A stretch of DNA of 59,214 nucleotides, filler included, from Jimgerdemannia flammicorona (GCA_003990765.1; 3 parts of 3 records of this genome joined end to end with filler, not necessarily neighbours in it); one strand, 5' to 3'; shown: positions 4,601-51,540, counted from the first letter of the whole stretch. Notes: generated by a model not told the origin, from the letters alone. Numbers and translations are program-made.

Positions 4601-6786
4601 TTATACTCAGGATTCTATTAGATTGGTCTTACCAAAGTAGTGAGTGAAAAATCAGCCTTCATCACTCTAGATAGAACCTATGTCTATCTGTAAATACTAT
4701 TTAGAATATATAATGCACTAATAAGCTTTCAGTAAATGATGAATAAAATTTTCCACTATAATATGAGAAGATGGATAATGGTTTATATAAATAATATTAT
4801 TATCTATAATAAGATAGCTAAAGAATATCTACAGCACATCTAGCAGATAATGGAGAAGCTAAGATAGTATAGTCTTTACATTAAGTCCAAGAAGTGCAAG
4901 TTGCAAAAATTGAGATCTCCTACCTTGGTCACATTATTAACTAAGATGGAATACACATAGACCCCCTCAAGATTCAAGCAGTAGTAGCATACCTAAGGCC
5001 CACCACTGCTACTGAAGCCCAAGCCTTTATGGAACTTGCCTCATACTACTGCAGATTTATTAAAGGATTCTCCAACATCATAAGTCCAATTTATAAACTC
5101 AATAAGAAGGATGTTAAGTCTCAATAGACTGAAAGGCAACAAAAAGTATTCAATAAACTTAAGATCAGACTGACCCAAGCACCCATCCTCAGAAGACCTG
5201 ATTGGATCCAAGAATTCATCTTGTAGACAAATGCAAGTACATAAGAACTAGGAGCAGTTCTGATATAGAAGATAGATAAAGTAGAGTATATCATTATATA
5301 TCTAAGCCAAGGAATCTGAAGAGCTGAAAAAGAGTATAAATTCTATAAGTTGGAATATCTTGCAGTTATCTGGACTATAGAGAAGTTCCACTAGAGAGAT
5401 ACTTCACTATTTAGATAGACTACTTAGCCCTTATCTGGCTGCTGACAACTGGACAACCCAAAGAAATCTATGCCAGATAGATTATAAAGTTATAAGCTTA
5501 TAATATAACTATTATATACTGCTCTGGAAGAACTAATGTCAATACAGATACCCTCTCACAGATACTCCAAAGAACTTCCAACTAGAAAATTAACCATAAA
5601 TAAGGAACTTTACTATAGAATTATCACCTACCTGGGACAGCAAAAGATGTCCCAATATCTAGAAGAATAAATACAAATAATTATCAACAGAATATAGAAA
5701 CAATTTAAGACTAATAGAGAAACACTAAAGAAAAGAAAGCTACTAGTTATACCCAAATATAAGAAGAAGTAAATAATGAAATCAGTATACAAACTTAGCT
5801 ATCTAGGAGGAATAAATACATATGATAAAGTAAAATGAATAATGTAGTGACCAGAAATGAAGGAAAATATCTGATGATTTGTTAAGACCTATGACAAATA
5901 TCAGAAACAGAAACAAAATTAACAAAATCAGACTCTAGAATTAGCATACATAGAACCAGTACTCTTTGCATACATTACAATAGACATAATTGACTCTCTA
6001 CTCTTGAATTTAACTGAAAACTAATATATCATTATCATTGTAGACCTTTTTATGAAATGGATAGAGACAGGATCTCTCAAAGAAGCTAATGTACAGTCAA
6101 TTGCTGATTTCTTTTATAAAGAAATTATCTGCTGATTTAAGACCCTAGCATAAGTAACTATAGACAGAGAAATAGAATTGATAAATCAGTTCTTTGAGAT
6201 TCTCTATAAGAAGTACAAGATCCAGTATATTCAGACTACAGCCTATTATCCTTAGGAAAATAGATAAGTAGAAAGAATCAACAAGACCCTCAAGAGCATT
6301 GTCATCAAGATCTATAATAACTACAAAAACTGGGATCACTATCTGCTAATAGCATTATCTGCTCTTTGGGATATCTAATCACAAAGCACCCATTTTATCT
6401 CTTGAGAAATACTGTTTGAAGAAGAAAGTTCTCAAGAAATCTTATCATCTAATAGAGATACTGTATGGAAATGTATGAATACAGAAATATAGAGACTATA
6501 TCAAATCAGAAAGAAGGCTGAGAATTATATAACTAAGGCATAGGTACTATAATAGAATAATATAGAAAAAACTCACAAATCTCTGGAGATTATTAAGATA
6601 GGAGACAAAGTCCTAGTATATCAGAATATAGTAGAAGCTTTATGATCATAAAAACTAGAACCTAAGTGGAAAGAATCTTACCTTGTACAAGATATAAAAG
6701 GAACTACCTTTTGGTTACAAAAACTCTTAAGTATAATTATCTCTACTACTATTCACTGAAATAGACTCAAGAAGTATCATAGCTAA
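1612..6786 (+). pseudogene. Family A gag-pol, many stops
   Basis: (M)DIKLLVFHKYISDKSIITFINDFKQY aligns with family C gag MEIYSPTFYGYTTEELILTFIEDFEQF. PR IFEAIINTKAEGC at ~3002; RT SPWVSP...RLCTDYRKLN at ~4410-4510; RNase H and integrase remnants; ends NRLKKYHS*. Confidence 0.88.
3677..4098 (+). pseudogene. dut: dUTPase domain of family A, between PR and RT
   Basis: ILKTRSSLTKSEITIEEEVIDLDYIKEI...KKDQLVQML...EFRFTER is a G>A-decayed version of family C IIKTRSSLAKSEISVEGGVIDPDYTGEI...DRIGQML...GFGSTGR. Confidence 0.85.
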
Positions 6787-7240
6787 CTAACAGAGTACTA
6801 TCACAGCTCTCAAGATTACTAGTACTATATAATAAGTTATAGAAAGATAATGATATACTACCAAGCCATCCACAATAGAGAAATCCTTCAACAGTATCCA
6901 AAGTATAGTCCAGATACACTTGTTATAAATCTTATACTTCAAGGCCTACCCAAACTGGACTGAGTTTCAAGAATACTTCAAGTTAGAATAGCTACTGAAT
7001 TTGCAGCTAGAGATGGAAAAAGAAAACTAGATCAGAGAATGTTAGCTCTCTTACACTTAGATCACTATTGTCAAAAGAGTGTACAAGTTATTCAAAGAAG
7101 ATGAACAAGCCCTAGCTCATTTCTGAGGAGTAGCTTCAGAAGACTTTGGATATATCAAGAGATATCATTGAGAGAATATAATGATACAAATTACACAGTA
7201 TAAGAAGATACAAATTATGGAAGCTTAGAAGTTCAAATGA
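6779..7240 (+). pseudogene. Family A ORF3 between integrase and PPT; homologue of the LTR-encoded proteins of C and D
   Basis: One frame from ATA (probable former ATG) at 6779: ...WTEFQEYFKLE*LL...ITIVKRVYKLFKEDEQALAHF*GVASEDFGYIKRYH*ENIM. The stops are revertible by single transitions. End approximate. Confidence 0.65.
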
Positions 7241-7281
7241 ATAGAATGCTTTAGAGATGAATTATCTATTCAGGAGAAAGT

Positions 7282-7741
7282 TGTGATAATTGATCTAAAT
7301 TAGAAATATGAATCAAAAGAATAGATATTTGATTACAGTATCTGAATTTAATTCTCAAATATAGTACAGTCTTATAAATAGCAAATATTAAAGTTTTAGC
7401 AAATGTTAAACTCTTTGCAAATATTAAGATTTTGGTAATTATTAAAGATTTAGTAGATGTAAAACACTTATAAAGAATAACTCATAGAAAACATAGTCAT
7501 AACTTAGCTGTCTTATAGCTAGCAAACTTATATAAATATCTCCAGTATCTAGAGTAAATAAACTTCAGATTGAAATAGTTTAAAGCAAAGAGAAAGCAAA
7601 GAAACTAGTAAGTCTGTAGGCAGATATACTTCAAACTCACCCACCTCTGTATTCTGAGAACTCTGTAGAGTCAAAGAAGATCAAGTTTTCAAGATACAGA
7701 AATCTGATATACTTATATAATTATATATCTACTATGTTACA
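7282..7741 (+). repeat. 3' LTR of family A
   Basis: TGTGAT...GTTACA, follows the PPT, colinear with 1024-1497. Confidence 0.9.
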
Positions 7742-8012
7742 ATAATCTCAAACTATAACTAATCTATTTAATAAATAAATGATAATTTATTATGATTATA
7801 AAGTATACTTAAATAATCTTCTTTAGACAAAATATCATTACTTTCATATTTGAATTCGGTATATTAATAATATATTATATATATTTATATATATTTAAAA
7901 AGAGTTTTTTTTATTATTTTTTTAAAAGATAAAATAAATAAAATTTTAAAAAATAAATTATATGAGATTATAGAGAAATATTAAAAAAATAACCATAATA
8001 TATTTTAAATAT

Positions 8013-8766
8013 TATTACAGTAGGCACTTAGTTCTTCAAGTATATCAGATTCTCTTCAAGATATATATCTTAGACTAACTATAAGTTTCTTATAAGCAAG
8101 TTTTATTAAAGTACCTTTCTAAGGTCTTATAGTCCTCAAACTTCTTATCTTTAAACTATTCTGTTGTCTATTGGATTTGCTTATATGGAATTGAGTAGAG
8201 GACTAGAACTTCTGTACTCTTGAATAGTTGAGTAATTGAATACTTAAGTGTTTTAATACTGACTTTATTTCAAGAAAATGAGAGGAATATTTATACAAAA
8301 TATAATTTAATAGTTGCTAAGATGTAAAGCTAAATATAAAATCCAATAACTAAATAAGATATTTGAATACAGGAAACTTCAGGTTATAAGTACAAATTTA
8401 AGTATCTGTATAATTAGTTGCACAAGATCAGAATGCTGGAATAATTTCTAACAGTTGTACAAAGTCAGAATACCAGAACATTCAAGTGTTTAAATAAATA
8501 GTTATACAAACAAATTAGAGTAGAATGTTCAAAATTCTGGAGGCTTTGTCTTCATCATTATCATCAAGGTTAGAGATCAAGAATAGGATATCTTTGAAGA
8601 AAATAAGGTTAGCAATCTGTTTTGTTTATTTTATGTATATTGATTAGCAGGATAATATCATCACTTATGATATATATCATCTTATTTAATAGTGATAGGA
8701 AGGAGATCAGGGGCTCTCTAATCTATTCTACAAAATAGAAAACAAAGGTAGGATCTTGAGAGAGTC
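8013..8766 (-). repeat. Older family-C-type LTR (3' or solo), truncated by insertion of D1
   Basis: Colinear with 42508-43230. Retains the C-terminus of the LTR ORF (...DDNDEDKASRILNILL*, stop 8515-8517). No PBS adjacent; flank ATAT. Confidence 0.85.
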
Positions 8767-10523
8767 TGTAAGCACACAACCTCTAAGCCACCGAAATTAC
8801 ATGTCACCCTCTGAACAAGCCACTGAAATTACATGTGACCTCTGAACAAATCTGAAAATCACCTGCTTGATCATGAAGCTGAGTCAAACCGAAGTCACAG
8901 TGCACAAAGCTAAGTCAATACGAAGTCACGGAAGACAAGATTTACACAAATGGAATCTTACCAATCAGGACCAAATGCATATATACTGAGCACCGAGATG
9001 CATCAAATCAGAGAACCAAAGCAAACAACAACCACAACTTCCAAATACACAAATATGACCACTGAGATCTACAACTGTATCCGCACTGACATTTGGAATG
9101 CCATTGTCAACTGAGCCACACTCCCTCTGCCCCTCATGAATATCCATAGCCTGGCACCCCTCTACTTCGTGGAAGCCTGATAGAATGTCCTGAACATGCT
9201 TAGCAAGGCCCACCGAATCGGACAAATCTCAAGCTACTACCAGATTGGCCACCTCCTGGAAGACATGGTCAAACACCACCATGATACAGACATTACCCAG
9301 ATGTCTCAACACCAAAAGCTCATCGCCCGCAAATATCGAGAACTCTTCTATAAGTATAACACCTTTATTCTCTGCCTCTGAGTCACTACCAGCGAAATAG
9401 TTGCTACCCTGTCCTATGGCCAAATTGATGACATGATACAAGAACTCAACTACAAGTACCTCAAATATGTGCAGACCACAGACAGAACCTTCCTGCACCC
9501 TGATGACCATATCCTGCAAATGCCTCAAGTCGGATATGCCATGAAGGATGTCTATAATATAATCCACTTCGACGAAGATGAAGCAGAAGATAATGATCCC
9601 TCTGATGCCAATATAACCTCTAGCCAAGGATCTCTGCCAACCCTGATCACACCACCAAACTTGCTGATGAACTTGCAACAGTTCATAACCACATACGAGA
9701 CTTATTGGGACAATGACCACTGGCATGAATATCAATCTGCATTCACCCCCAATTACTTCAACTACAATGAAGAGACCAGAGAACACAACCTGTACCTCCA
9801 GACAACCCTCAAGATCAAACCAACAACCCCACCACCTGAGTATGAGTGACATGAACCACAGCCGCCAGCTTACTACAACCCCGCGACTTATAGTACTGTA
9901 ACTTATAGAAGATACATAGACAGTGAATCTGATGAAAGTGAAGATGATGCACTCCTCCTTCGCCCACCAACACCTTATCCAGCATATGAGACAGACGATA
10001 CTATCCTGTGGGATGGAGACGAAGTTCCAATGTACTATTACCTCAGCGAACAAGGAGAAGTAATCCGCGAACCATTATTCCTAGACAACTACTTCATCAG
10101 AGATGATGCAATCGATGGTGATGTTATCGAAGACTACCCAGACAGTACCTAAACCCATAAATAGCCTAGCAGTCATAGTATAGTTAGATTAGCATTGTAC
10201 AATGTGACTGTGAACTGACTCAGCAGTCAGACGATCTCTTGACATGTCAGATCACACTTATACTATGTGACTGCATTCTGACTCAGCAAGGCACTTAGTG
10301 CTACATCTATATCTAGCATAGTTTAGATAGCCCCTCACTAGTATAAATACCCCCTCCCCCAGACCTCAGAATCTCAGACTTGAACAGACTTGAACACACA
10401 AGAACATTCCTGAATACTTCCCTACAATACCCCTTCATACAAATATTCCTAATATAGCAATATCATGAATAGCAAATAAACCTATTCCATAACCCACAAA
10501 CTACTCCTAAGTAAATCTGCTCC
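8767..10523 (+). repeat. 5' LTR of D1 (extent shared with the 3' copy; true end uncertain, candidates 10437 or 10838)
   Basis: Colinear with 17357-19113 and 50154-51911; TATAAAT at ~10342 and AATAAA at ~10475. Confidence 0.85.
9055..10152 (+). pseudogene. LTR-encoded accessory protein (~365 aa), D1 5' LTR
   Basis: Single frame MTTEIYNCIRTDIWNAIVN...YYQIGHLL...LIARKYRELF...IRDDAIDGDVIEDYPDST*. Five internal stops, all revertible to CGA/TGG and mostly sense codons in sister copies. Confidence 0.8.
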
Positions 10524-11798: not shown

Positions 11799-14700
11799 AT
11801 GGCGAACCAACAGATTCTAGACCTTATAGCCCAAGTAGCTATAATGGCAGCAACCATTACTGCCTTAGCTGAACAGACCCGACCTACCAAAAATCTGAGC
11901 CTACCTACCTTCAATAGTACTGCACAAGAAGCCCAAAGCTTCATTAGTGTAGTTGACACCAACTTCAAAGCCAATCAATGGATTAATGAACGAGTTGCTG
12001 ACCGCGTTCTGACAAACAATCAAGACCACACCCTGGAACAACTCTTTGCTACCACTACAGCCTATGTCTGCTGAGTTGTTACATTCTTCTGAGGACCTGC
12101 CGAAGAATGGTGGCGAACCCTTCCTAAAAAACCCCTCACATGGGATACCTGACCTGCAGTAGTTGCCCAGAATGCAGCAAACAATGCCCCAGGATATAGA
12201 GCCCATCCTGCAGCCCCTGGACTCAAACAACTCATGATTGCTCAATATCGCAGTGAAATCATGATTGCCAAATCTCGAGTAAAACTCTGCAACCTCAAAT
12301 TCAATGTATATGGCAAAGAAGAATTTGAAACCTTCTGTACAAAACTCGAGTCACTCCTGAACACTGTTGGCCTAGGATACATTGCCAATGACAAAGTACG
12401 AAATGGTACAAGAGCAGACCATTTATTTGATGCCCTGCCTGAATGGCTTACTAGAAAAATCTGAGAACAAGGCTGCCCAGTTGGTTGTGATCACCAACAA
12501 TGGTGCCTAGCAAGAATCAAGACCATGGTCAAGCGAATCCTAACAGCTGGACCAATTCTGCCCTGAAGACAATTTAACAACAAGGAAAAGACTTGGACCA
12601 AGAAAGAAGAACCCAAGCATGAAGCATCTCGAGCTCCCTCCACATCCACCTCTTGGATACCCAGAAATCATGAACCCACCCAGCCAAGTACCTTTAAGAA
12701 ACTTACTGAAGGTGAAAGAAATGAACTTTGAAGAAGTGGAGCATGCTTCTATTGCCGAAAGACAGGACATATGGCCAGTGCCTGCCCTAACCGAAAAACC
12801 TGAATGGCAACACGAGCAACTGTTACCACTCTTCACCACCTCAACAACCTGATCACCAGAACAGTAGACTTTGTCAAGTTAAGACAAACTGCTAAGGCCC
12901 CAACCAAAGGAAGTCAAAAAGCAGCTGGATATGACCTGTATGCAGCCGAAGAAGCTACAGTTTCCAACTGAGAAGTCAAACAAGTCTATACAGGAATCAG
13001 TATCCAAATCCCTGAAGGATATGTTGGAAGAATATGCTGTCACAGCAGCCTAGCGCTAAAGGGACTCTCAGTAGAAGGAGGAGTCATTGACGAAGATTAT
13101 ACAGGTGAAATCATTATCCTCATTTGAAACTACAGTTGAACATCCTTCAAGATCCCTATTGGCTTCTGCATCGCCCAGATTCTATTCAAAAAAATTGAGT
13201 CAACCCTGACAGTCAAGGAAGTCCCTGAACTACTGCCCACTATCTAAGGATCTAAAGGATTTGGCTCATCAAACAAAGCCCCAGTCCAACCTACCATGAG
13301 CAAAAAAGAACAATTCTACAAGAAGATCGAAGATGGATATGTGCCAAGTGGCTGATGCCCTCATGGTATTGGAATGTACTCTTCCTGAATGATTGATGAT
13401 TGCTTCTCTTGTATCAACGAACTGGCTCAAAGAAGAACCAATAGAAGAAAGACTTCTACAACTGAAATCACCAGCATTGGATCAGACAAACTGCTCACCC
13501 TTAAGGCTTTTGTCAATGGAGCACCTGTCAAGATTATGATAGATAGTGATGCCTCAGGCAACTTCATTAATGAAGAGACAGCCAACAGACTCAAGGTCTT
13601 CACCTCCCCAGTACAGCAAACTCAAGCAGTTGCTACAGCTGATGGAACGTCACATGTTATTAGCAAAAACGTCCACAATCTATCTTTCCGAATTGGTAAC
13701 TACCAAGTACATGTTACCCTCCAAATTGTACCACTTCAGGACAATGAAATCATCCTTGGGACTCCATGGTTAAAACAAGAGAACCCCATGATTGATTGGG
13801 TAAACCATTCCCTGACCATCAAGAAAGGATGCCACAACTTCAAACTACAAGGCGAAAAGGACCCACTCAACTCTAAGGACCCTGGACCAAAGATCACCCA
13901 CATCAACAAGCTACAACTCAAGAAATTGGCCAAGAAATGCCCTCTCTTCGCTATCTCCATCTGACCATCTAAAGGAGAACCCGAGAACTCTGAAGAAGAT
14001 TTTTCCAAAGTTGACAACCATGTCAGACCACTACTCCAGAAATTCTGAGACATATTCCCAAAGAAGCTCCCGAAAGGCCTACCTCCCAAATGAGCAGTAG
14101 ACCATGTCATCAAGACTATCCCAGATGCCAAACCAGCCTTCAAGTCAATCTACCACATGTCTCCGAGAGAAATTGATGCACTCAAGAAAGAAATCGACGA
14201 ACTCCTAGAACAAGGATTCATCAGACCCAGTGTATCACCCTATGGTGCACCTGTCCTCTTCGTTGTTAAGAAAGAAGGAGACCTGCGAATGTGCATTGAC
14301 TACCGCAATCTCAATGAACAGACCATCAAGAACTGTTGCCCACTACCGAGGATCGATGAAATATTCGATAGACTTACCAATCCACAATTCATGAGCTCTT
14401 TTGACCTGTGAAATGGTTACTAGCAAATTGCCATGAAAGAAGAAGACATCTACAAGACAGCTTTCCAAACTCACTATGGACACTTCGAGTTCCTAGTTAT
14501 GCCCTTTGGCTTAACTAATGCTCCAGCAACCTTCCAGACACTGATGAATACCATTCTGTATCCATACCTAGACAAATTCATTGTTGTCTACATTGATGAC
14601 ATCCTAGTCTTCAGCAAAACCCTGGAAGAACATCTTGAACACCTTGAACTAGTACTACTAAAACTCCGAGAAAACTGACTCTTTGCAAAACTCAGCAAGT

Positions 14701-17356: not shown

Positions 17357-19113
17357 TGTAAGTGCACAACCTCTAAGCCACTGAAATTACACGTCACCCT
17401 CTGAACAAGCCACCGAAATTACATGCAACCTCTGAACAAATCTGGAAATCACCTGCTTGATCATGAAGCTGAGTCAAACTGAAGTCACAGCACACAAAGC
17501 TGAGTCAATATAAAGTCATGGAATATAAGATTTACACAAATGGAATCTTACCAATCAGGACCAAATGCATATATACCGAGCACCGAGATGCATCGAATCA
17601 GAGAACCAAAGCAAACAACAACTATAACTTCTAAATATACAAATATGACCACTGAGATCTACAACTGTATCTGTGCTGACATTTGGAATGCCATTGTCAA
17701 CTGAGCCACACCCCCTCTGCCCCTCATGAATATCCATAGCCTGGCACCCCTCTACTTTGTGGAAGCCCGATGGAATACCCTGAACATGTTTAGCAAGGCC
17801 CACCGAATTGGACAAATCTCAAGCTACTACCAGATTGGCCGCCTCCTGGAAGACATGGTTGAATACTACCATGATACAGACATTACCCAAATGTCTCAAC
17901 ACCAAAAGCTCATCGCTCACAAATATCGAGAACTCTTCTATGAGTACAACACCTTTATTCCCCGCCTCCGAGTCACTACCAGTGAAATGGTTGCTACCCT
18001 GTCCTATGGCCAAATTGATGACATGATACAAGAACTCAACCACAAGTACCTCGAATACGTGCAGACCACAGACAGAACCTTCCCGCACCCTGATGACCAT
18101 ATTCTGCAAATACCTCAAGTCGGATATGCCATGAAGGACATCTATGATATAATCCACTTCAATGAAGATGAAGCAGAAGACAATGATCCCTCTGACACCA
18201 ATATGATCTCTAGCCAAGGATCTCTGCCAACCCTGATCATACCACCAAACTTGCCGATGAACTTGCAATAGTTCATAACCGCATACGAGACTTATTGGGA
18301 CAATGACCACTGGCATGAATACTAACCTGCATTCACCCCCGATTACTTCAACTACAATGAAGAGACCAGAGAACACAACCTGTACCTCCAGACAATCCTT
18401 GAGATCGAACCAACAACCCCACCACCTGAGTATAAGTGATATGAACCACAGCTGCCAGCTTACTACAACCCCATGACTCATAGTGCTGTAACTTATAGAA
18501 GGTACACAGACAGTGAATCTGATGAAAGCGAAGACAATGCACCCCTCCTTTGTCCACCAACACCTTATCCAGCATACGAGACAGACAATGCTATCCTGTG
18601 GGACAGAGACGAAGTTCCAATATACTATTACCTCAGCGAACAAGGAGAAGTAATCCACGAACCATTATTTCTAGACAACTACTTCATCAGAGATGATGCA
18701 ATCGATGGTGATGTCATTGAAGACTACCCAGACAGTGCCTAAACCCATAAATAGCCTAACAGTCATAGTATAGTTAGATTAGCATTATATGATGTGACTG
18801 TGAACTGACTCAGCAGTCAGATGATCTCTTGACATGTCAGATCACACTTGTACTATGTGACTGCATTCCGACTCAGCAAGGCACTTAGTGCTATATCCAT
18901 ATCTAGTATAGTCTAGATAGCCCCTCACTAGTATAAATACCCCCTCCCCCAGACCTCAGAATCTCAGACTTGAACAGACTCGAACATACAAGAACATTCC
19001 TGAATACTTCCCCACAATACCCCTTCACACAAATATTCCTAGTATAGCAATATCATGAATAGCAAATAAACCTATTCCATAACCCACAAACCACTCCAAA
19101 GTAAATCTGCTCC
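17357..19113 (+). repeat. 3' LTR of D1 (interrupted)
   Basis: Follows the PPT; colinear with 8767-10523. Confidence 0.9.
17645..18742 (+). pseudogene. LTR-encoded accessory protein, D1 3' LTR
   Basis: Same length as 9055-10152 and single frame; includes track ORFs 17726-18271 and 18473-18742. Confidence 0.8.
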
Positions 19114-27642: not shown

Positions 27643-27673
27643 AAGAAATAATGTTATATATCACTCACATCCT

Positions 27674-30522: not shown

Positions 30523-30552
<30 letters not shown>

Positions 30553-39545: not shown

Positions 39546-42387
39546 GAGGCCCAGGGGCTGATAGCTTGCTTGATGATTCCGGCTTCTTCCATTTCCTTGA
39601 GTTCTGCTTGCAGCCACTCTCTGTAGGCAGGTGGTATGGGTCTGGCTTTCTGGTAGATGGGCTTGGTATCACCAGTGTCAACTTCATGGTAGTACTTGGG
39701 TTCTTGATTGTAGATATCCCTGAAGTCTGTAGCAAGTACTCCTTCGTTCTGGTGCAGGATCTTGAGAAGTTGTTCCTCCAGGGGAAAGTTTTCTCCAATG
39801 GTATATGTGTACTTGTTCTGGTTCTTGTCTTTCTTGTGCTCAAGTTTGGTAATCTTGGTGGTGGCATAGGCTCCTCTTCCAGTAGATCCAAAGCCTTGTT
39901 CTTCTCTCTTGGTCTTGATGAGTTCGATGGCTTCTATGATCTTGGGCTTCTTGACTTCATGGATCAGCATCTGGCCAATCCTGTCATGCTTCTTGACTTC
40001 GAAGGGGGTGGTGTGGTTGTGATTTCTGACTATGAGGAAGATCTCGCCAGTGTAATCAGGGTCAATTACTCCTCCTTCAACTGAGATTTCGCTTTTGGCC
40101 AGACTGCTCCTGGTCTTGATAATTCCAGCATGGTTTTCTGGCAGCTTGACTCCAATTCCAGTACCAAGTAGGGTGGTGGTCTGTGGTTCGAGGGTAGTAT
40201 CTTGAATGCTGGCAAGGTCCATTCCTATGGCTCCTTCAGTCTTGTATTCTGGGATCTTGGCTTCGGGGTGAAACTTCTTGACTTTGAGGGTGATGTCTGA
40301 TTCTTGTTCCTCCTCATCGTCACTATCAGCTTGAAGCTCTGGGGGCTGGTCATCTTCTTCGGCTTTTCTTTTTGCTTCGACGGCTTCTTGCTCATATTTC
40401 TGTTGGCAGATTTTCCTGACTTCACTGATACAGAACCAGTAGTCATTCAGGTGTTTGGAGCAGTACATCCTAGTACCATGGGGGCATCTTCCTTGAGAGG
40501 CATAGCCATTGATAATCTTGTTGTACCACTGCTCATCTGTGAGCTTGGGTGTCTTGCTCTTGTTCTTGTTCTTGTTCACCAAGTGCATGAAGACCTCTGT
40601 GTCTTCTTTATCTCCTTCCTTCATGTCTGGTAGGACTCCTTTGTGGACATTGATAGAGACTCGTACCTTTCTTCCTCTATAGTTGATCTGCATCTTCTGG
40701 GCATTGAGGTCAATGATGGCCTTGGCCTTGTGAAGCCATTGATTGCCAATAAGGATGTCATAGTTGGTGGTGCTTGTAACAATCACATCTACTGGGATGG
40801 TAGCTCCTCCTATCTTGATGGAGACTTCTCAGATTTTGCCAAGGGGGGTAGCTCGTGTACCATCTGCTGTGACATAGACCATCTTGGTGGACTCTTCAAT
40901 GTCCCAACCTAGGCAGTCAATTGCCTTCTTGCTCATGAGGCATCCTCCAGCACCAGTATCAATGATGGCATCAAAGATACAGTCTTTGATCTGGCAGGGG
41001 GTATAGGCTGATGTCTTGCACTGGTCTTCGGATTCTTCACCTAAGTTCTCGGATTCTTCCTGTGTATTGTGGGCTTCTACAATCTTGTACTCTTGATTCT
41101 TGGCTGTAGTTGCAAGTCCTACTCTCAACTGCTGTCTGAAGGCAGGGACTTCAGCTAGCTGTCCAAAAGTGGCATTGACCTTCTGTTCCTTGAGGTTCTT
41201 GTAGATGTCATACTGGTGGATCTTGGTCTTGCGCAGCTTCTGTTCCTTCTTGCTTTCGCTTTCTCCTGAAACTGGAGTAGTGCCTTCAATGATTTGGTGG
41301 GCAGCTTCATCTAACTCCATATCTTGGTCAATCTCCTTGGGTTGAGTCTTGCTTTGAATAGTGACAGCTGGAGTCTTCTTTGGTCTTCCAACTGGCTTGC
41401 TATTGCTCTTCTTGTCATAGGGCTTGGACCAGGTTCTGGTACCTTCAGTAGTAGGGTAGAATTCGAGCTCCTTGTAGTATTCTTCATCATCAGTGTCACC
41501 AATCTCCTCGATGACTACTGTATTGGTTTGTTCTCTAGTTCTGCTAGCATTGCTTGGTTGGACTTTGCGTCTTGTTTTGGTCATGCAACTCTTTGCATAG
41601 TGGCCTTCTTCTCTACATCTGAAGCATGTGATATTACGTTCTTCTGTAGCAGCTGCAAATCTTGCACTGGTCTCCTGTTAGTGCTTCAGACTTCTCTAAC
41701 AATATCACCAAGGTGTGCAGTCATCTCGGCAAACTGCTTGGCGAGTTCTTCCACTGGGTCAGCTTTGGCTGTCTTGGGGGTAGGTGAGGTTGGTTGTCTG
41801 TTTACAACTGTGGTGGGTAGGATACTAGTTGGCTTTGATGGCTCTATCTTGATGCCAGTTATTTTCTCTATTGAGTGTTCAGCAGGATGTCTGGCAGTCC
41901 AATATCTCTGTGCAAAGACCACTTTCTGATCAAGGGTCAGTGCAGCTGGGGTAGACCGGATTGCTAGGGCAATTTCAGGGTGAACTCCTTTGAGGAAGGT
42001 TGAATCTGCTATTTGTTCCCTGAGGCGGTCATCATAGCCAGCCAAGACAATCTGGTGGCAGATTCAGGTATAGAATGAGTTGGGATCTTCACTAAGTCCC
42101 TGGCAGATAGTATTGAGTTGATCCTTGAGAGCTTGCTTGATCTCTTTGGTATAATATATTGTTCTGAGGAAGACCTTCATATTGGCAAGTTTGACTGCAT
42201 CAGCACCAGCAATAGTGGCTGCATTGAACTTGTCTCTAGCAGGTCCTCTAAGGCTGACTGATAGAAGGGCCAATTGAGCATCTATACCAAGGGCTCGTAC
42301 GGTGGCGAATTGTTCAAAGTCTTCAATGAAGGTCAGGATTAACTCTTCAGTAGTATATCCATAGAATGTGGGGGAGTATATTTCCAT
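39546..42387 (-). pseudogene. Family C gag-pol (5' part)
   Basis: Zinc knuckle CFRCREEGHYAKSC; PR IIDTGAGGC; GRCPHG module; dUTPase GAIGMDL/RSSLAK/GVIDPDYTGEI/GFGSTG at ~39870-40290; RT start ISPWA. A few stops and one frameshift near 41665. Confidence 0.92.
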
Positions 42388-42504: not shown

Positions 42505-42984
42505 AGTTGTCACATAGTAGTCACTGAGTCCTTCAAATACGCCAGATTCTCTTCAAGGTGTATCTCTTAGACTAACTCAAGTTTGTTATAAGCAAGTTCT
42601 TATTGGAGTGCCTTCCCAAGGTCTTATAGTCCTCAAACTTCTTATCTTTAACTGTCTTGTTATCTCTTAGATTGCTTGCAAGAAAGTGTGTATAAGTGAA
42701 ACCAGAACTGACTTTATTTCAGAGGAAATAAGAGGGGTATTTATACAAAATATAATTCAATGGTTGCTAAGATATAAAGCTAAATATAAATTCCAATAAC
42801 TAAAACTACTAAGTTCCAGAGTCGGTACCGATGATTGTACAGATTCAGGATGCTGGCATTATCCAGTGTTACATGAGAATACTGGTGCTGGAACAATTTC
42901 GTGTTACCTCAGAATACCAGTGCTGGTATTATCTGGTGTTACATGAGAATACCAGTGCTGGCATTATTCAGTGTAACAAAGAAC

Positions 42985-43803
42985 TTAGAGCAGAAAGTTC
43001 AGGATCATAGAGGCTTCATCATCATCATCATCACTAAAGGAGATGAGATCTGCAAATTCGTTGTTTTCGCGTGCTTTGCATATGTTGATGTCATGCGGGA
43101 TGACGTCATCACCGATGATGTCATCACATTCGGCAGTGGTAGGAAAATCGGGAACAAGATCTGGAATTCTCCAGTCTATGAGGTTCTCTTCCACAAAATA
43201 GGGAACAAATGTGAGGTCTTGGGGAGATCTAACCCGGATGCTTGGGCCTTGGAATACTGAGATCAATCCTTGCAGGAATTGGTCTGGGTTGTCCTGAAGG
43301 ATAGGATGCCAGAAGTCTTCTACTTCTTCACTGTTGAGGGTGATAGTGGACTGGGCTTCTATAGCCACCCTGGCTTCTAGTACATTGATATGGCAGGATG
43401 ACAGGTCTCTGAAGTCTGAGACTCTAACATACTCCAAGTTGGGGATCGACCATGGTGCATGCCTGAAGATCTGATGGATCTTTTTAGCTATCCTTATTTC
43501 ACATATATCCATGGAAGTGGCATCTTGTAGCTCTTGGGTGCTGGCCTGTGGGAACTCTCGGCAGAGGAGGTTTCCTATTTTGTACTCCTGCCACATTTAG
43601 AGGCATTCGGTAGCAATGGTGATCCTTATTTCCATTTCACGGCGGTAGAGGATAAAGTGATAGGGGTCTGCAGTACCCAGGTTGACACTAGGAGTCCTTC
43701 TTGAGCGGGTCCTCATGGCTCTTCTGATGTCTTGGAACATCCTTTTTTCAACTGAGATACCTTGGTGGTTCCTTGACCTTGAGGTTTGGTGGGCAGCAGA
43801 CAT
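42985..43803 (-). pseudogene. LTR-encoded accessory protein (272 aa), family C 5' LTR
   Basis: ORFs 43597-43803 and 42985-43596 are one frame split by a TAA that is CAA in the sister copy; acidic tail SDDDDDEASMILNFLL*. Confidence 0.82.
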
Positions 43804-44122
43804 TTCATTTGTGGTAAGTCTTTGAGCTATTTTGAGATTGGTGGTTCTTGTTGGTTGCTGCTACTGCGGTTCCTTGATTCTTCTTTTATATTCTTCAGGA
43901 TACTTGTGCTGTGGTCACAATGACTCACAGTTGGTCATCATTGTTCATCTCATATGCCGTATAATCTTCTTGTGCTCCAATCTGGTGGCTTGTAAGGAAA
44001 AGCTGTCTCCTGTGCTGATGTCATTATTCTGGGGTCACCATTACAATATTTATATGTAAAAATGTATATATTTGATACAATAACAATTATATAAATAAGT
44101 TTGATATGTAAACTATATATGT

Positions 44123-45659
44123 TGTAACAGTGACCCCAGAATAATGACATCAGCACAGGAGACAGCCTTTCCTTGCAAGCCATCAGATCGGAGCACAAGA
44201 AGATCATACAGCATATGAGATGAGCAATGATGACCAACTGTAAGTCATTGTGATCACAGCATAAGCATCCTGAAGAATATAAAAGAAGGATCAAGGAACC
44301 GCAGTAGTAGTAACCAACAAGAACCACCAATCCCAGAATAGCTCAAAGACTTACCACAAACAAAATGCCTGCTGCCCACCAAACCTCAAGGTCAAGGAAT
44401 CACCAAGGTATCTTAGTCGAGGAAAGGATGTTCCAAGACATCAGAAGAGCCATGGGGACCTGCTCAAGAAGGACTCCTAGTGTCAACCTGGGTACTGCAG
44501 ACCCTTATCACTTCATTCTCTACTGCTGTGAAATGGAAACAAGGATCACCATTGCCACCGAATGCCTCCAAATATGGCAGAAGTACGAAATAGAAAACCT
44601 CCTCTGCCGGGAGTTCCCACAGGCCAGCACCCAAGAGCTACAAGATGCCATTCCCATGGACATATGTACACGAAACAAGGACAGCTAAGAAGATCCATCA
44701 GATCTTCAGGCATACACTATGGTCAATCCCCAACTTGGAGTATATTAGAGTCTCAGACTTCAGAGACCTGTCATCCCGCCATATCAATGCACTAGAAGCC
44801 AGGGTGGCTACAGAAGCCCAGTCCACTATCACCCTCAATAGCGAAGAAGTAGAAGACTTCTGGCACCCCATCCTTCAGGACAACCCAGACCAATTCCTGC
44901 AAGGATTGATCTCAGTATTCCAAGGCCCAAGCATCTGGATTAGATCTCTCCAAGACCCCACATTTGTTCCTTATTTTGTGGAAGAGAACCTCATAGACTG
45001 GAGAGCTCCAGACCTTGTTCCTGATTTCCCCACTACAGCCAAACGTGATGATGTCATCGGCGATGACATCATCCTGCACAACATACGCGAAATGCGCGAC
45101 CTACATGATGAATTCATAGATCTCATCTCCTTCAGTGATGATGATGATGAAGCTCCCATGATCCTGAACTTTCTGCTCTAAGTTCTTTGTTACACTAAAT
45201 AATACCAGTACTGGTATTCTTATATAACACTGGATAATACCAGCACTGGTATTCTGAGGTGATGCGAAATTGTTCCAGCACCGGCATTTTGATGTAACAC
45301 TAAATAATGTCAGCATTCTGAACCTGTACAACCATCAGTACCGACCCTGGAACTTAGTAGTTTTAGTTATTGGAATTTATATTTAGCTTTATATCTTAGC
45401 AACCATTGAATTATATTTTGTATAAATACCTCTCTTATTTCCTCTGAAATAAAGTCAGTCTTCTCAGTGCAATACACACACTTCCTTGCAAGTAATCTAA
45501 GAGATAACAAGATAGTTAAAGATAAGAAGTTTGAGGACTATAAGACCTTAGGAAGGCACTCCAATAAGAACTTGCTTATAACAAACTTGAGTTAGTCTAA
45601 GAGATACACCTTGAAGAGAATCTGGTATATTTGAAGGACTCAGCGACCACTATGTGACA
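44123..45659 (+). mobile_element. Solo LTR of family C
   Basis: TGTAAC...GTGACA, 1537 bp, inverted copy of 42508-44045; 4-bp TSD ATGT at 44119-44122 and 45660-45663; no PBS or PPT adjacent. Confidence 0.93.
44365..45181 (+). pseudogene. LTR-encoded accessory protein in the solo LTR (one 2-nt frameshift near 44675)
   Basis: ORFs 44365-44688 and 44645-45181 together match 42985-43803; TATAAAAG at 44278-44285 lies upstream. Confidence 0.82.
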
Positions 45660-45781
45660 ATGTATAGATAGGAAACTATATATATGAATATGAGAGAGTA
45701 TATATAATGAAGATGGGTTGAGAAGAATGATGGAGAACACATTAGGCAAAAAATAGACAATTTAAGAGAATAAAAAAAAAA

Positions 45782-48700
45782 CATTTTATTGGTACAACTT
45801 GGAGCCAATCATATAATCCATAGTTCACTATTCACGTTATACACACTTTTACAACACACTTTCAAGTCATTTATTGGAGAAAGGTACTAAGTCAATGGCA
45901 AATAGCAAGCAATCTGGGGTACATACTGGGCAGGGTGGCTCTAGTACATTTGACTGGTAGCAGGTGGGGAGAGGTCCTGGTCTGGGGGGAGACATGAGGG
46001 GGCTGTTGGCAGGAGGATAAGAAGGGGAGGTAGCAGTAGAGGACAGGGGTCTGAGAGGGCGAGCTTTGCGGAGATGGTGAAGGAGAGGCAGCAGACATCT
46101 GGGTTGGAGGGTTGGCTGAGGAAAGGCAAGGAGATGGAGAAGATAACAGTTTGTGGGGGAGTAGTCCTTGGTGGTGAGGGCAGTAGAGCTGGGAGAGTAG
46201 TGGCTGGAGGGAGTATGATGGCTGATAGTGACAGGACTGCCAATCTGGAAAAAAATCCAGATGTGATAGCTGATAGAGTGGCTGAGCAACTGAGGCTTAG
46301 AAGGCAGGGAGATTTGGTGGATGGTGTGATGGGCCTGGTGGTGGCTCCATTACTCAAGAAATTGATCTTGGCATTCATAGTGATGTTGTGCTTCTGGGGC
46401 CTGGCAGTGATAGTGAAAATGGTGCTGGGGCTTATCACTAAGCAGGTGGCTAGAGTAGCATCCATAAAGTTCCTGAAGAGATTAGAGGGAGTAGAGGTGG
46501 GCTTTGAGGAGGCTGAGCCTCTGGAGGAAGTGCTGAAGGTTGGATTGATAGTTGGGGAGGTATGTATTCTGATAGCATGCTGTCTGAAATGGGACCCCAG
46601 AGTGGTCCAATTGCTAGTGAAAGGAGTGCCCACAATGATGGTGGTGGAGACAAGAAGGAGAGTCAAGGAGGTTATAGCAGAGTATAGAGAGGTGGTGGAT
46701 ATTGGATTCAGAGTCTGAGAAGGGACCTCACTCAGAACTGGAGATGTGGATGTGAGGATTCAGCTAGTGGAGAAAGAAGCTACCAGGAAGGCAAGGAACT
46801 GGCCTTCGGGGATAGTCTGGAGGGCAATCTTGTGTAAGGTGATAAGAGTAAAGGGGAGTGAGGAGGAGAAAGAGGACTTGTTAGAGGTACTGAAAGAGCT
46901 GAGTAGAGCAGTAGAGCAGTGGGTGAAGGCTTGGAAGGCTTTTGTAGAGTCAACACACTTAGAGGTGGTAGATGGGAAGCAGATTTGAGTAGACAAGAGG
47001 CAATGGGAAAAAGCTCAGAGACATAAGCATCAAAAAGAGTTATTGGCCATGATGGAAAGTCAATCACAGAAGAAGGCAGATGGTATGGTGGAAATGGGGG
47101 GTGCCAAGGCAAGTATCTGGGCTGGTGAGGTTGGTGGGAGTGCAGGGAAGGAAAAAGGAGAGGACAGGAAAGCAGCTGGTAATGACTCATATGCTGATTG
47201 TATGTTTGAGGTCTGAGAGGAAGACTGGAAGGGATTGCCTACCCCTACTCCTCTTATCAGGTGAGGTCCAGCTTCCAGGAGCTGGGTGGGAGAGGATGTA
47301 CTGATGAAGGGGGCCCAGTGAGTGTAGTTTGGAGTTCCTGAGGTAGTAAATGGGGGACAGGTGGTGGCAGTTAGAGAGGAGAAACTAGTGGATGTCCCAG
47401 AGGTATAGGATGAGGCTGCGAGTGCTGGGACTGATACCACAATGTTGGATGGTGGAAGACTGGCAACTCCTGGAGGGAAGGAGGTAGGAAATCTACTTTG
47501 GATGTGCAGGATGATGAATAACCTGGTAGCTGAAGAGTTGGGAGAGGTAGACTTGAGAGTAGTGAGTGATGAGCATTGGGCACAGATCCTGCAGGGGGAC
47601 AGTATGGAGTTGGCATTGAAGACAGAGATCCTTATAGTGTATCTAGAGGAGGAAGGGTATGAGATAGATAAGGAGCAGGAGGTAGAGCTCACAGGGGTTA
47701 CTGGTAAGAGGGCCAAATACTGTTGGGCCAAGTGACATAGATTGCAGCTCTGGCAGAAGGTCTGCCTGGAGTACTGAGAGAAGTTTGAGGAGAAGGCAGA
47801 TAGAGAGATGAATGAGCTGTTGGCTGGATTGGAGGCTCAGAGGGCTGAAGAGGAGGCATTGACTGCAGAACATAATCTGAACATGGCACAGGAAGAGATG
47901 AACATGGAGCAGTAGGGATGGACTGAATATATACACCATACTTCATTATGAATAGTACAACCAATATTTTTTCTTTGAACATGAATGGGTTATAGGGTAC
48001 TTATCAATGTAGGAACATTTTTACTTAGCTAAAGAGATTGGAGGCCAATCTCTTCCTCTTGCAAGATGTCAGGTATGAGGATGATTTGGATAGACTGGAA
48101 TAGATGAAGGAATGGGGAGGTAAGGCAGTTTGGAAGAGAAAGGTTGGGATTCTGGTATGAAAAGGCAGAGGGGAGATAAGAGATATACAGAGCTGGGGGG
48201 ATAGATTGGTCTGGGGTGAATGGATATGTATGGGATAGGAGCCGGTCACAGTGGGCTCTTGTTACTGCCCTGTTGTATAGGGTGAGCATATAGATTGAGT
48301 GAAGGGCCTTCAGGAGAGTAGGATCCTTGCAGAGGCTGGGGTGGATATATTTGGTGGAGACTACAATATAGTCTGAGATGTACTATTGGATAGAACAGAT
48401 GGAGGATGGGGAGCTGAGAGTCAGAGTGGAGGACTGGCAGCATAGAAGGAAGTAAAAAGGCTGAGTGCTCTAGTGGATGCAGGTAGGGAGTGCTGGGGGG
48501 ATAGGAGGGTATACATGCATTGGGCAGAGGGCTTGGAGATGAGAATTGATTGGATTCTGATAGCCAGCTGCCGGAGCTTGGATGTTTGGAAGTCACTAGA
48601 GGTGGAATGGTGTCCTTGGTCGGATTATTGGGGGCTTTTAGGACATGGACATTTTGGGGGGAGTGAGGATGGGCCTGGATATTAGTGCCTCAATTCTTCC

Positions 48701-49280
48701 TTATTAGATGATAAGATCTGGTGAGATAAGTGGGCTGCAGACATTCAACTGAGAGTAAAGTGTTGGCAACAGAAAGATGCCCCAGTTGGTGTTCAGTAGA
48801 TGAAGATAAAAGAGATGGCCAGGACTTACTGAAGGGAGGCTGACAAGGAGGCTGGGAAATGGAGGAGGCAACAGGTGAGATGGGCTTCTAGTAGACTGTC
48901 TAGACTCTTGGAGGATTGAGCAAGACTGACAACATTGGAGGGAGAGGAGAACTGGAGATCAATGAGAGTGAAAAGGGAGGTTGGTGAACTATAACAGGTA
49001 TTGCGGGAGGAGGAAGAGGCAAGAGTGCAGAGCTTGGCAGCATGGCTCCATTGGCAGGGTTTGGAGGAAGAAGAGAGACCCTCAAAGTATCTCATGAGAG
49101 CCCTTCAGGTGAGAAGGGTGCAGCAGAGGTGAGAGGGGGTGCTTGACTCTGATGGTATACTAGTACATAGTATACAAGACATTCTTGGATCTCTAAAGGT
49201 GCATTGGAGTAGATTGTGGAGTGAGGAGGAGGGTGGGGTAGATGTGGATGCCATTGACTGAGCATTAGCAGACATCTTTC
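45782..49280 (+). mobile_element. L1/Tx1-like LINE, 5' part (ORF1 ~45895-47915; ORF2 from ATG 47948), interrupted by the next LINE
   Basis: Homologous to 23869-29738 (APLLKK, WDPRVVQLLV, MNSTTNIFSLNMNGL, RIDWIL, WCPWSD). Start approximate. Confidence 0.85.
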
Positions 49281-50153
49281 ACCAGTAACATTCAGGTGAC
49301 ACAAGACTCAGACAACACTTTCTATAATGTTTTTGGTGATTGATGACTAGCAACATGGATGGCAATGATCGAACTGATGAGTATACTGGCCAGGGGGGAG
49401 GCAGTGTCTTTGGCTGGCAGCAGGTGGGAAGGAGGAGAGATGGTTTGGGAATACCAGAGGCCTCGATGGCTAGCCAGAGCCCTGGTGGTGGAGGGAGGGG
49501 AGGCCTGAGACAGCGAGGAGGGGAGAGGTTGACCTTTGCTGACAAGGTCAAAATGGGGAAGATGGCCTCTGGTCTGAATGGTTGGCTGGGCCTGGGGAAG
49601 GCGTTGACAGCTGCTGCTGGGGGACAGGGAGGAGTGCCCAGGGGAGTGTCTGGTGGTAGAAAAGGAGGGGGAGTAGGGACTGGAGATGTGACTGTTGATG
49701 GGGCTGTAACAGGAGATCTGGCAAAAAATCTAGATGTGATGGCAGTGGCTAATTCAGGATAAGGGGTGGGCGTGAGACCTGGGGACCTGGCAGATGGGGT
49801 GATGGGCATGGTGTCAGCACTGTTACTCAAGAAATCGAGGTCAGAATTTGCTGTCACAATATGTTTCAGAGGCTTGGTGGTGACTGCGAGGATGATCTTA
49901 GGGCTGGTGGCACAGGAGGCAAAAGGAGTGGCCTTGGTGAAGTTTTTGAAAGAGAAAGAAGGAGTCGAAGTGGGGTTTGAGGAAGAAGAGGTATTGCTGG
50001 TAGCCATGGAGAAGGGGGTGACAGTTGGTGGGGTTGTAGTCCCTATGGCCAGGTGTATGTGCTGGGACCCCCGAGTGGTGTAGTTGACAGTGTTGGATCT
50101 TCCTATGGTGTCAAAGGAGAGGGCCAGGGAGTTGATTGTGGAGGTGGTCAAGG
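49281..50153 (+). mobile_element. L1/Tx1-like LINE 5' end (ORF1 from 49343), interrupted by D2
   Basis: YTGQGGGSVFGWQQVG, TFADKVK and WDPRVV motifs shared with the other ORF1s. Confidence 0.82.
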
Positions 50154-50444
50154 TGTAAGCGCACAACCTCCAAGCCACAGAAATCACACGTCACCCTCTG
50201 AACAAGCCACCAAAATCACACGCGACCTCTGAACAAATCTGGAAATCACCTGCATGATCATGAAGATGAGTCAAACTGAAGTCACAGTACACAAAGCTGA
50301 GTCAACATGAAGTCACAGAACACAAGATTCATACAAACAGAATCTTACCAATCAGGACCAAAATGCATATATACTGGGCACCGAGATGCATTGAAACAAA
50401 GAACCAAAACAAACAATAACCACAACTTCTGAACATATACAAAC

Positions 50445-51540
50445 ATGACCACCAAGATCTACAACCACATCCGTGCTGACATTTAGAATGTCATTGTCAA
50501 CCAGGCCACACCCCCTCTGCCCCTCATGAATATCTATAGCCTAGCACTCCTCTACTTCGTGGAAGCCCAATGGAATGCCCTGAACATACTTAGTGAGGCC
50601 TACTGAATCAGACAAATCTCAAGCTACTACCAGATCAGCCGCCTCCTGGAAGATATGGTCGAACACCACCATGATACAGATATTACCCAGATGTTCCAAC
50701 ACCAGAAACTCATTGCCCGCAAACATCGAGAACTCTTCTATGAGTATAGCACTGTTATTCCCCGCCTCCAAGTTATTACTGCTGAAATGTTTGCTACCCT
50801 ATCCTATGGCCAAATCGATGACATGATACAAGAACTTAACCACAAGTATCTCGAGTATGTTGAAACCACAGACAGAACCTTCCCACATCCCAACGACCAT
50901 ATCCTGCAAATGCCTTAAGTTAGATACGCCATGAAGGACGTCTACGATATAATTCAGTTCGACGAAGATGAAGCAGAAGACAATGATCCCTCCGACACTG
51001 ACATGACCTCAACCAAGGATCCCTGCCAACTCTGATCACACCGCCAGCCTTGCTGATGAACTTACAACAGTTCATAACCACCTACGAGACCTACTGGGAC
51101 AATGACCACTGGTACGAATACTAACCCGCATTTACCCCCAATTACTTCAACTACAATGAAGAGACCAGAGAACATAACCTGTACCTCCAGACAACTCTCA
51201 ACATCAAACCAACCACTCCACTACCTGAGTACGAGCAACATGAACCACAGCCACCAGCATACTACAACCCTGTGACTCATAGTGCTATAACCTATAGAAG
51301 GTATGTAGATAGCAAATCTGATGAAAGTAAAGATGATGTATCCCTCCTTCACCCACCAATGCCTTATCCAGCATACAAGACAGATGATGCTATCCTGTGG
51401 GATGGTGATGAAGTTCTAATGTATTATTACCTCAGCGAACAAGGAGAAGTAATCCGTGAACCACTCTTCCTAGACAACTACTTCATCAGAGATGATGTCA
51501 TTGATGGTGATGTCATCGAAGACTCCCAGATAGTGTCTAA
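50445..51540 (+). pseudogene. LTR-encoded accessory protein, D2 5' LTR
   Basis: Colinear with 9055-10152; has stops and small deletions. Confidence 0.78.

Follow-up and report, generated by a model that had tools for sequence, protein, structure and literature searches.

Accessory genes separate the complex retroviruses from simple retrotransposons, and genes carried within a long terminal repeat (LTR) are textbook oddities of a few retroviruses. Mouse mammary tumor virus (MMTV) has the sag open reading frame (ORF) in the U3 region of its LTR. The nef gene of human immunodeficiency virus (HIV) and the bet gene of foamy virus overlap U3, and an internal promoter of foamy virus drives production of a transactivator. 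Both nef and sag are expressed via a spliced subgenomic mRNA. Herein we describe an ORF of similar placement in Ty3/Gypsy retrotransposons (Metaviridae) from a 59,214-nt stretch of Jimgerdemannia flammicorona DNA (GCA_003990765.1), hereafter called the window. This DNA holds a nest of decayed elements of that kind, among which families C and D have this accessory ORF inside their LTRs, and family A has a probable remnant beside its 3′ LTR.

Additional ORFs of unknown or noncanonical function are known to lie beside gag-pol in LTR retrotransposons. In rotifers, ORF3 types are common to unrelated element lineages (PMC5408684), fungal chromoviruses are drawn with an “add. ORF” (PMC2864245), Retrosat2/RIRE elements possess an ORF0 upstream of gag (PMC3485330), and Boty has an antisense gene called brtn (PMC8365987). 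According to the parts of these reports that concern such genes, some additional ORFs are common to more than one lineage, and their evolution outpaces that of pol. Rotifer ORF3 is located between pol and the 3′ LTR, and those same parts describe neither it nor ORF0, brtn, or the fungal “add. ORF” as residing within an LTR. Fungal Gypsy elements also vary in the position of dUTPase, which can be at the N terminus of Pol or between protease (PR) and reverse transcriptase (RT) (PMC2864245). Both positions occur in the window (in D and a fourth element, B, versus C and A), but the dUTPase and “add. ORF” parts of that report mention no LTR-borne gene. Our literature search, whose coverage did not extend to subscription journals, found no description of an ORF family inside Metaviridae LTRs.

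The closest match in layout is MMTV sag. In both C and D, an ORF of approximately 300 codons lies wholly in an LTR of more than 1 kb, upstream of the promoter core, and in U3. Unlike sag, the protein has no Pfam match and no hydrophobic segment, and its carrier is a Ty3/Gypsy element of a soil eukaryote rather than a betaretrovirus. Foamy virus Tas/Bet and HIV nef are likewise 3′ accessory genes that reach U3, and the second promoter used for the foamy virus transactivator corresponds to the arrangement that we propose below. In contrast to these viruses, the LTR encloses the entire gene together with its putative promoter, such that 5′ and solo LTRs carry the gene as well, and the likeness is one of layout only. 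We are highly confident that the accessory ORF is a real gene under selection located in U3. Among overall explanations, we give cautious preference to an accessory gene of a dUTPase-bearing Ty3/Gypsy group that is transcribed from its own promoter and yields a trans-acting product.

A Selected ORF in U3

The accessory ORFs of families C and D are contained entirely within LTRs of 1.5–1.8 kb (Table 1). The A remnant is found between the stop codon of integrase (IN) at approximately 6770 and the start of the 3′ LTR at 7282. These locations agree with a preliminary description of the window, which had listed seven copies inside the LTR (C and D) or 3′ of integrase (A). All seven are present as described, with that at 8515–8766 on the minus strand. 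C and D have similar layouts, wherein an LTR head of 250–290 bp is followed by the ORF and then by 190–240 bp leading to a core TATA box. This TATA box is at LTR position ~1308 in C and ~1576 in D, separated from the ORF stop codon by 240 and 190 bp, respectively. Because the ORF is upstream of the core TATA in both families, it falls in U3. This U3 position is well supported, with the U3/R boundary placed by motifs.

Selection was assessed from dN/dS ratios (ω) calculated by the Nei–Gojobori method. The window copy of the C ORF, when compared to an intact ORF from a metagenome locus called L001, yields an ω of 0.22 (pS 0.65, pN 0.27), whereas the off-frame controls yield 0.97 and 1.60. Between the two D elements, ω is 0.19 in frame versus 0.79 and 0.93 in the other sense frames, and is 0.72, 0.34, and 1.36 in the antisense frames. 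The gag region, PR, RNase H, and IN-chromodomain segments of this same pair of elements give values from 0.12 to 0.23, and thus dN/dS for the accessory ORF is as low as for pol. No frame-specific signal is seen between the two LTRs of one element (ω of 0.50, 0.48, and 0.98) because divergence there reflects only decay after insertion. An antisense frame of 281 codons is also open opposite the accessory ORF in both LTRs of D element 1 (9229–10074 and 17819–18664, minus strand), and is broken in the third D copy. We rejected this frame as the gene because it lacks constraint (ω of 0.72).

Stop-free relatives of the accessory ORF were found, all of them on short metagenome contigs. Relatives of the C type are the proteins P0004–P0013 and the full 322-codon ORF of L001, which are 28–86% identical and begin with a conserved MP(A/P) start. 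Identity is 72% for P0005 (271 aa), 62% for the L001 ORF, and 28–47% for P0012, P0010, and P0013. Relatives of the D type are P0003 (247 aa; 62%) and P0014 (128 aa; 88%). A scan of metagenome loci returned a single locus of 1345 bp whose flank is too short for LTR context.

The two LTRs of each pair in A, C, and D differ almost solely by transitions, with transition/transversion ratios (ts/tv) of 14–60. Observed/expected CpG ratios (CpG o/e) are 0.01 in A and 0.24–0.30 in C and D. Such a pattern suggests that silenced repeats undergo CpG-targeted deamination in this host, and the accessory ORFs in the window were broken by recent decay of this same kind. Of the stops, one was open to checking, at codon 14 of D copy 3, and it is private to that copy. 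Codon 14 is a sense codon in 348.2 of 352.5 depth units in sequencing run X1, and in all of the depth in runs X2–X4. Stops shared by the two LTRs of D element 1 could be read as a sign that the element inserted with a dead ORF. We rejected this argument as unsafe because CpG hot spots make parallel mutations likely.

Table 1. Positions of LTRs, accessory ORF copies, and promoter-related motifs in the window (ATG, start codon; PBS, primer binding site; PPT, polypurine tract)
Feature	Position	Strand	Remarks
D accessory ORF copy 1	9055..10152	+	365 codons, 5 in-frame stops; LTR offset 289–1386 of 1757
D accessory ORF copy 2	17645..18742	+	4 in-frame stops
D accessory ORF copy 3	50445..51540	+	4 stops, one frameshift near 51011–51014
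C accessory ORF copy 1	42985..43803	-	272 codons, 1 stop; LTR offset 252–1070 of ~1548
C accessory ORF copy 2	44365..45181	+	One frameshift; last 195 codons open
C-type ORF, C-terminal remnant	8515–8766 (about 8518–8767)	-	Inside C-like LTR fragment 8019–8766
A accessory ORF remnant (probable)	6779..7240	+	14 stops in 154 codons; detectable similarity at 6962–7156
D element 1 5′ LTR	8767..10523	+	1757 bp, TGTAAG start; 93% identical to 17357–19113
D element 1 3′ LTR	17357..19113	+	Preceded by PPT AAGAAGGGGAGAGT at 17343–17356
D element 2 5′ LTR	50154..51911	+	Matching 3′ LTR begins at 58747, truncated by the end of the window
C element 5′ LTR	42507..44054	-	~1548 bp; followed by PBS-like TTGGTGCCCATTGCC, gag, PR, and dUTPase on the minus strand
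Second C LTR	44114..45660	+	Head to head with first C LTR across 59 bp
Diverged C-like LTR fragment	8019..8766	-	64% identical; ends where D LTR begins
A element 5′ LTR	1024–1498		
A element 3′ LTR	7282..7742	+	461 bp, TG..CA; PPT AGGAGAAAGT abuts
D LTR putative core promoter, GTATAAATACCCC..TCAG	10341..10377	+	Also at 18931 and 51729
Same core-promoter 13-mer in C	42734–42746; 45420–45432	-; +	
Same core-promoter 13-mer in C-like fragment	8284–8296	-	
Same core-promoter 13-mer in A	1283; 7530		
Putative upstream TATA box of C, GAATATAAAAG	44275..44285; 43883–43893	+; -	87 nt before C ORF ATG
35-bp tandem repeat (×3.7) in C	45188..45315; also 42851–42978	+ (first)	Between ORF stop and core TATA

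Promoter Motifs and Possible Modes of Expression

Every LTR in the window contains the core promoter sequence GTATAAATAYCYC. There are 11 matches to this sequence with no more than one mismatch, compared to 0.34 expected, and 8 of the 11 occupy the equivalent place in A, C, C-like, and D LTRs. A TCAG sequence is present approximately 31 nt downstream of the core TATA, which is the usual spacing between a TATA box and an initiator, and the tail of L001 has the same arrangement. The hexamer AATAAA occurs just 5′ of TCAG in A, C, and L001, and 133 nt after the TATA in D.

TATA sequences also occur upstream of the accessory ORF. The 11-mer GAATATAAAAG of family C is found in identical form 65 nt before the ATG in L001, where the upstream stretch is otherwise unaligned by blastn. 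In D, the sequence GCATATATAC resides 75 nt before the ATG, at LTR position 214. Each D LTR copy of ~1757 bp has two or three TATAWA sites, and just two are kept in all three copies, namely the core promoter and the site preceding the ATG. The presence of an upstream TATA near the ATG in C, L001, and D favors a dedicated promoter in the LTR head, and we see an even chance that the gene has its own promoter 65–88 nt upstream of its start codon. In this mechanism, the upstream TATA promoter would drive a transcript for the accessory ORF that ends at the LTR’s own poly(A) signal, and each LTR, whether 5′, 3′, or solo, would constitute a self-contained transcription unit.

The C LTR also has a 35-bp tandem repeat downstream of the ORF. 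A near-palindrome, ACCAGYACTGGT, is present with no more than one mismatch in two repeat units of the plus-strand copy and in three units of the minus-strand copy (seven matches versus 0.6 expected). It is plausible that these repeats form a binding array.

Another possibility is that the same gene is expressed in the style of retroviruses, wherein only the copy in the 3′ LTR is used, a spliced subgenomic mRNA is produced, and the product is a host-factor adaptor or a suppressor of silencing. Only the U3 of the 3′ LTR is within reach of the main promoter, and the A ORF directly follows integrase and is within the genomic transcript. In addition, the disordered acidic tail has conserved tryptophans and other aromatic residues, as do adaptors that act through short linear motifs, and the host clearly inactivates these elements (CpG o/e 0.01–0.30). 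Against this mode of expression stand the TATA boxes of C, L001, and D, which precede the ATG by 65–88 nt, and no splice signals were identified. We regard it as rather unlikely.

Relationships Among the Accessory ORFs of C, D, and A

The elements that carry the accessory ORF are Metaviridae, in which direct LTRs start with TG, a PBS follows the 5′ LTR, and a PPT precedes the 3′ LTR. The D LTR terminates with ..GCTCC rather than CA. Pfam matches reveal gag, PR, RT, RNase H, and IN in Gypsy order (C is truncated). Family D, represented by one full element and a second that is cut by the window end, has the order gag-dUTPase-PR-RT-RNase H-IN-chromodomain. It is a chromovirus as indicated by the C-terminal chromodomain of its integrase (PF00385; Pfam E 8.8e-17 in 16056–16928), whereas the integrase of family A ends without this domain. 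Family C, on the minus strand, is arranged as gag-PR-dUTPase, and a PBS-like sequence (TTGGTGCCC) follows its 5′ LTR. The element is truncated after dUTPase at an N run. Family A has a gag-pol related to that of C and LTRs that are 84–86% identical, with a GC content of 27–33%. The pol proteins of C and A share only 35–41% amino acid identity with those of D, and PR and dUTPase stand in the opposite order, which matches the earlier assignment of D to the chromoviruses and of A and C to a different pol lineage.

The relationship between the C and D accessory ORFs emerges from profile comparisons. When seven close C sequences are used, hhalign matches C to D with a P of 0.0063, and this improves to 0.00065 (probability 27.5%) after the diverged proteins P0010, P0012, and P0013 are added to the C profile. 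A P of 0.00073 is obtained with a six-row D profile. The alignment spans 119–124 collinear columns, with C residues 22–148 placed onto D residues 9–133 at 17–18% identity. Its score is 33.6, whereas column shuffles give 14.5 ± 2.6 (maximum 24.5; none of 100 reached 33.6) and reversed-profile controls give 13.6–13.8. A second collinear motif pair joins C 194–230 with D 302–358 (P 0.044). MAFFT L-INS-i applied to the N-terminal parts produces the same nearly gap-free alignment as hhalign. Furthermore, when a hidden Markov model (HMM) of the C family was used to search 474 six-frame chunks of the window, the three D ORFs were the top non-C matches (E 0.0018–0.01, HMM positions 7–147).

These data bear on the possibility that the C and D ORFs are unrelated and were acquired independently, with the similarity between their profiles arising from a shared amphipathic helical composition. 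Pairwise Smith–Waterman comparison of C with D against shuffled sequences is not significant (z 0.7–1.5), hhalign probabilities range from 6 to 28% at 17–18% identity, and the C-terminal halves are unaligned except for one short motif. Likewise, a HMMER search of 1.84 billion representative sequences with the C profile recovered five C-type proteins and no D-type protein, and thus made no link between C and D. Similar composition is difficult to reconcile with a score seven standard deviations above column shuffles, with reversed controls that remain at background, and with a score that rose when diverged C members were added. It is also at odds with the agreement between MAFFT and hhalign, with the emergence of D ORFs from a blind six-frame scan, and with the common order of LTR head, ORF, and TATA in both families. 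Independent acquisition is therefore improbable, and homology of the C and D accessory ORFs is quite probable.

The evidence for A is borderline. In pairwise comparisons, 2 of 300 shuffles reach the score of C versus A, and D versus A is not significant (z 1.2). The C profile matches A by hhalign with a P of 0.013 over 64 ungapped columns, whereas the C-only HMM yields an E of 1.8. An HMM of the combined C and D domain detects A with an E of 0.031, which is the best non-family match among the 474 chunks (the next has an E of 1.5), and the corresponding hhalign P is 0.0088, with 0 of 100 shuffles reaching the score. A tblastx comparison of the A region with C and D LTRs gave nothing under an E of 0.4, and nucleotide local alignment of the A LTR with the tails of C or D LTRs gave z values of no more than 1.1. 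What these LTRs have in common is limited to the short core-promoter motif. On balance, we consider it fairly probable that the A ORF belongs to the same family.

The three blocks of similarity that had been aligned by hand in the preliminary description are reproduced by both hhalign and MAFFT, and its proposal of a single family common to A, C, and D stands for C and D by profiles (P 0.00065) but is only borderline for A (E 0.031, P 0.0088). Two of the checks that it named came out in favor of the finding, as profile similarity is present and dN/dS is far below 1. The probably homologous ORFs of C and D do occur in different pol lineages. However, the crossing of lineages that it claimed is not needed, because vertical descent explains the data equally well.

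The positions of the ORF in the three families can be reconciled with a common origin. In A, the remnant extends to 7240, ahead of an LTR start at 7282 and a TATA at 7531, which gives the same order of ORF, 250–290 bp, and TATA that is seen in C and D. What differs is that the PPT is downstream of the ORF in A and upstream in C and D. Because the order is the same and only the placement of the PPT changes, the presence of the gene in different places does not require separate acquisitions. A shift of the boundary between PPT and LTR could be a simple route by which U3 takes in a gene. Given the core promoter common to all three families and the PPT junction common to A and D, the data fit either vertical inheritance of a 3′ module that evolves quickly or its exchange by recombination.

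The Predicted Protein and Its Possible Function

The accessory protein family is uncharacterized as far as libraries and searches show, as had been proposed. Pfam has no family for any window piece of the accessory ORF or for six intact relatives, PDB sequence profiles give no match at E values up to 1, and Foldseek searches against PDB and BFVD return no matches at E ≤ 0.001. The ESM Atlas offers no usable match for P0005 or P0003, for which its models have predicted local distance difference test (pLDDT) values of 0.35 and 0.39, respectively.

An AlphaFold2 (AF2) model of the C protein from a 10-row alignment (mean pLDDT 50) has helices across residues 18–184, with the best stretch at residues 70–160 (pLDDT 57–89) and a tail at 162–271 below 50. 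The D model (pLDDT 30) has helices at 3–18, 30–74, 85–116, and 121–141, which coincide with the C helices in the hhalign register. These models suggest an N-terminal helical domain of approximately 130–150 residues followed by a disordered tail. The N-terminal parts are near neutral to basic, whereas the tails have net charges of −22 to −39, a pI of approximately 4.05, 7–12% proline, and 7–15% aromatic residues. The tails differ between families, and their acidic residues are mixed with aromatic and hydrophobic ones. Among seven proteins examined, there is no transmembrane segment (maximum 19-residue Kyte–Doolittle mean 0.47–0.97) and no signal peptide, as the N termini are polar. Therefore, the protein is not env. 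The helical core, the acidic tail, and the exclusion of env had all been anticipated from the sequence, and low-confidence models, composition, and hydropathy data bear them out. A search of 48,161 chains with VIA-align placed TetR/AraC-type helix-turn-helix domains on top for residues 64–110, with a best Z of 4.7 that is within the noise range of the tool, and we take this solely as a lead. This region of the C model contains a conserved AKKIHQ(I/V)FRH helix.

Transcriptional activators are usually built in this way, with a helical domain attached to a disordered tail of acidic and aromatic residues. The product may be a trans-acting transcriptional activator or adaptor that serves the element. 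In that case, its helical domain would contact DNA or a host factor, and its acidic tail would provide activation or recruitment. We tentatively place a Tas-like transactivator of the element’s own LTR at the head of the functional readings. An adaptor or silencing suppressor made from a spliced 3′ RNA ranks after it.

One can also imagine that the ORF is a passenger, i.e., a fragment of a host gene captured in the LTR that has no role in the life cycle of the element. The protein has no family assignment, and retroelements are known to capture ORFs, as in the ORF3 part of one report (PMC5408684). However, constraint on the ORF equals that on pol during diversification of the elements, the gene is kept across families whose pol proteins are 35–41% identical, and conservation extends to the context of the start codon and to the upstream TATA. 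Moreover, no longer or differently built cellular relatives were found, though longer lengths were not searched. We consider a passenger quite improbable. That the frames are open merely by chance or composition has a negligible probability, for although all window copies carry stops and an antisense frame is open in the LTRs of D element 1, only the sense frame shows purifying selection (antisense ω of 0.72) and intact relatives exist at 28–88% identity.

Several observations count against the accessory-gene explanation that we prefer. None of the copies in the window is intact, and each dN/dS value derives from a single sequence pair with a strong transition bias (ts/tv 9–60). The intact relatives reside on short contigs where LTR context is seen only for L001, whose tail keeps the core promoter. 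The TATA, initiator, and poly(A) assignments are consensus matches rather than mapped transcript ends. With regard to homology, the C–D relationship is not significant in pairwise comparisons, reaches an hhalign probability of just 26–28%, and is absent from the HMMER results, whereas the A copy rests on an E of 0.031 and a P of 0.009 and is not significant by hhalign with the D profile alone. Finally, the two AF2 models are of poor quality (mean pLDDT 50 and 30), and the best structural match, to a TetR-type helix-turn-helix, is inside the noise range (Z 4.7).

Other Features of the Window

Six sequencing runs, five of them labeled soil metagenome and one “organism A,” contain small shares of the window sequence, and no RNA run is among them. 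Short contigs from four of these runs, three labeled soil metagenome and one “organism A,” agree with the LTR boundaries given here, and none spans a full-length copy. The D polypurine tract is a loose end before 50154 in contigs of runs X2–X4, and the C PBS is a loose end after 45660 in 10 contigs of run X1 and one of X3. The second C LTR is solo or truncated because no PBS follows at this locus. The U3 starts of the two C LTRs (42507–45660) are 59 bp apart, and together these LTRs form a 3.2-kb near-palindrome that is 89% identical.

The C-like LTR fragment that ends at D element 1 does not resume after 19113, and no target-site duplication of D element 1 was recognized. The sequence GAGAGTC (8760–8766), comprising the 7 bases before the 5′ LTR of this element, resembles the end of the polypurine tract of the 3′ LTR.

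Element B (19776–24400) is a fourth, D-like element with a Ty3 capsid, dUTPase, and an integrase zinc domain. Its weighted amino acid identity to D is 42% over tblastx segments, and the best segments reach 54%. Neither HMM found an accessory ORF match in element B during the six-frame scan of the window. The dUTPase domain precedes PR in D (12803–13961 and 54192–55091) and in B (20166–20990), and follows PR in C (39497–41677, minus strand) and in A.

A repeat of approximately 5 kb occurs twice in opposite orientation, at 24300–29700 (plus strand) and 45900–50150 (inverted), with ~68% identity. The two copies show extreme strand asymmetry, with GC skews of −0.43 and +0.49. Their GC content is ~50%, their CpG o/e is 0.06, and their long open frames have an abundance of proline, serine, and threonine. 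The only Pfam match is an integrase SH3-like piece at 29933–30244. Two N blocks of identical appearance, each consisting of 44 N, 12 bases, and 44 N, are located at 19676–19775, beyond the end of D element 1, and at 39446–39545, where the C element is truncated. Lastly, an unannotated region at 31–39 kb has 220-bp inverted repeats (31763–32003 and 37539–37785) that are 5.5 kb apart and ~80% identical, an internal palindrome at 34855–35527, and a copy of the core-promoter 13-mer at 31305–31317. Its ORFs have no Pfam match.

Implications for LTR Retrotransposons

Genes located wholly inside an LTR are rare outside retroviruses. In the present case, a selected gene for which Pfam, PDB, and fold libraries offer no detectable relative appears to reside entirely in the U3 region of Ty3/Gypsy elements and to be common to deeply diverged families. 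This would show that LTR retrotransposons outside animals evolve regulatory genes like those of retroviruses. Because long LTRs are usually assumed to be noncoding, genes of this type may be missed or mislabeled.

We speculate further that the LTR itself could be the gene. In this more ambitious scheme, which we regard as doubtful, every LTR would be a unit of promoter, ORF, and poly(A) signal that encodes a trans factor to activate or shield related elements. The gene would have entered U3 by relocation of the PPT and would mark an ancient accessory module of a Gypsy supergroup that bears dUTPase and inhabits soil eukaryotes (probably fungi). If true, hundreds of solo LTRs left by recombination would remain as helper loci. 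More generally, an LTR-borne gene would mean that solo LTRs may not be inert, and it offers a concrete candidate for the means by which an element controls its own expression or evades silencing by its host.

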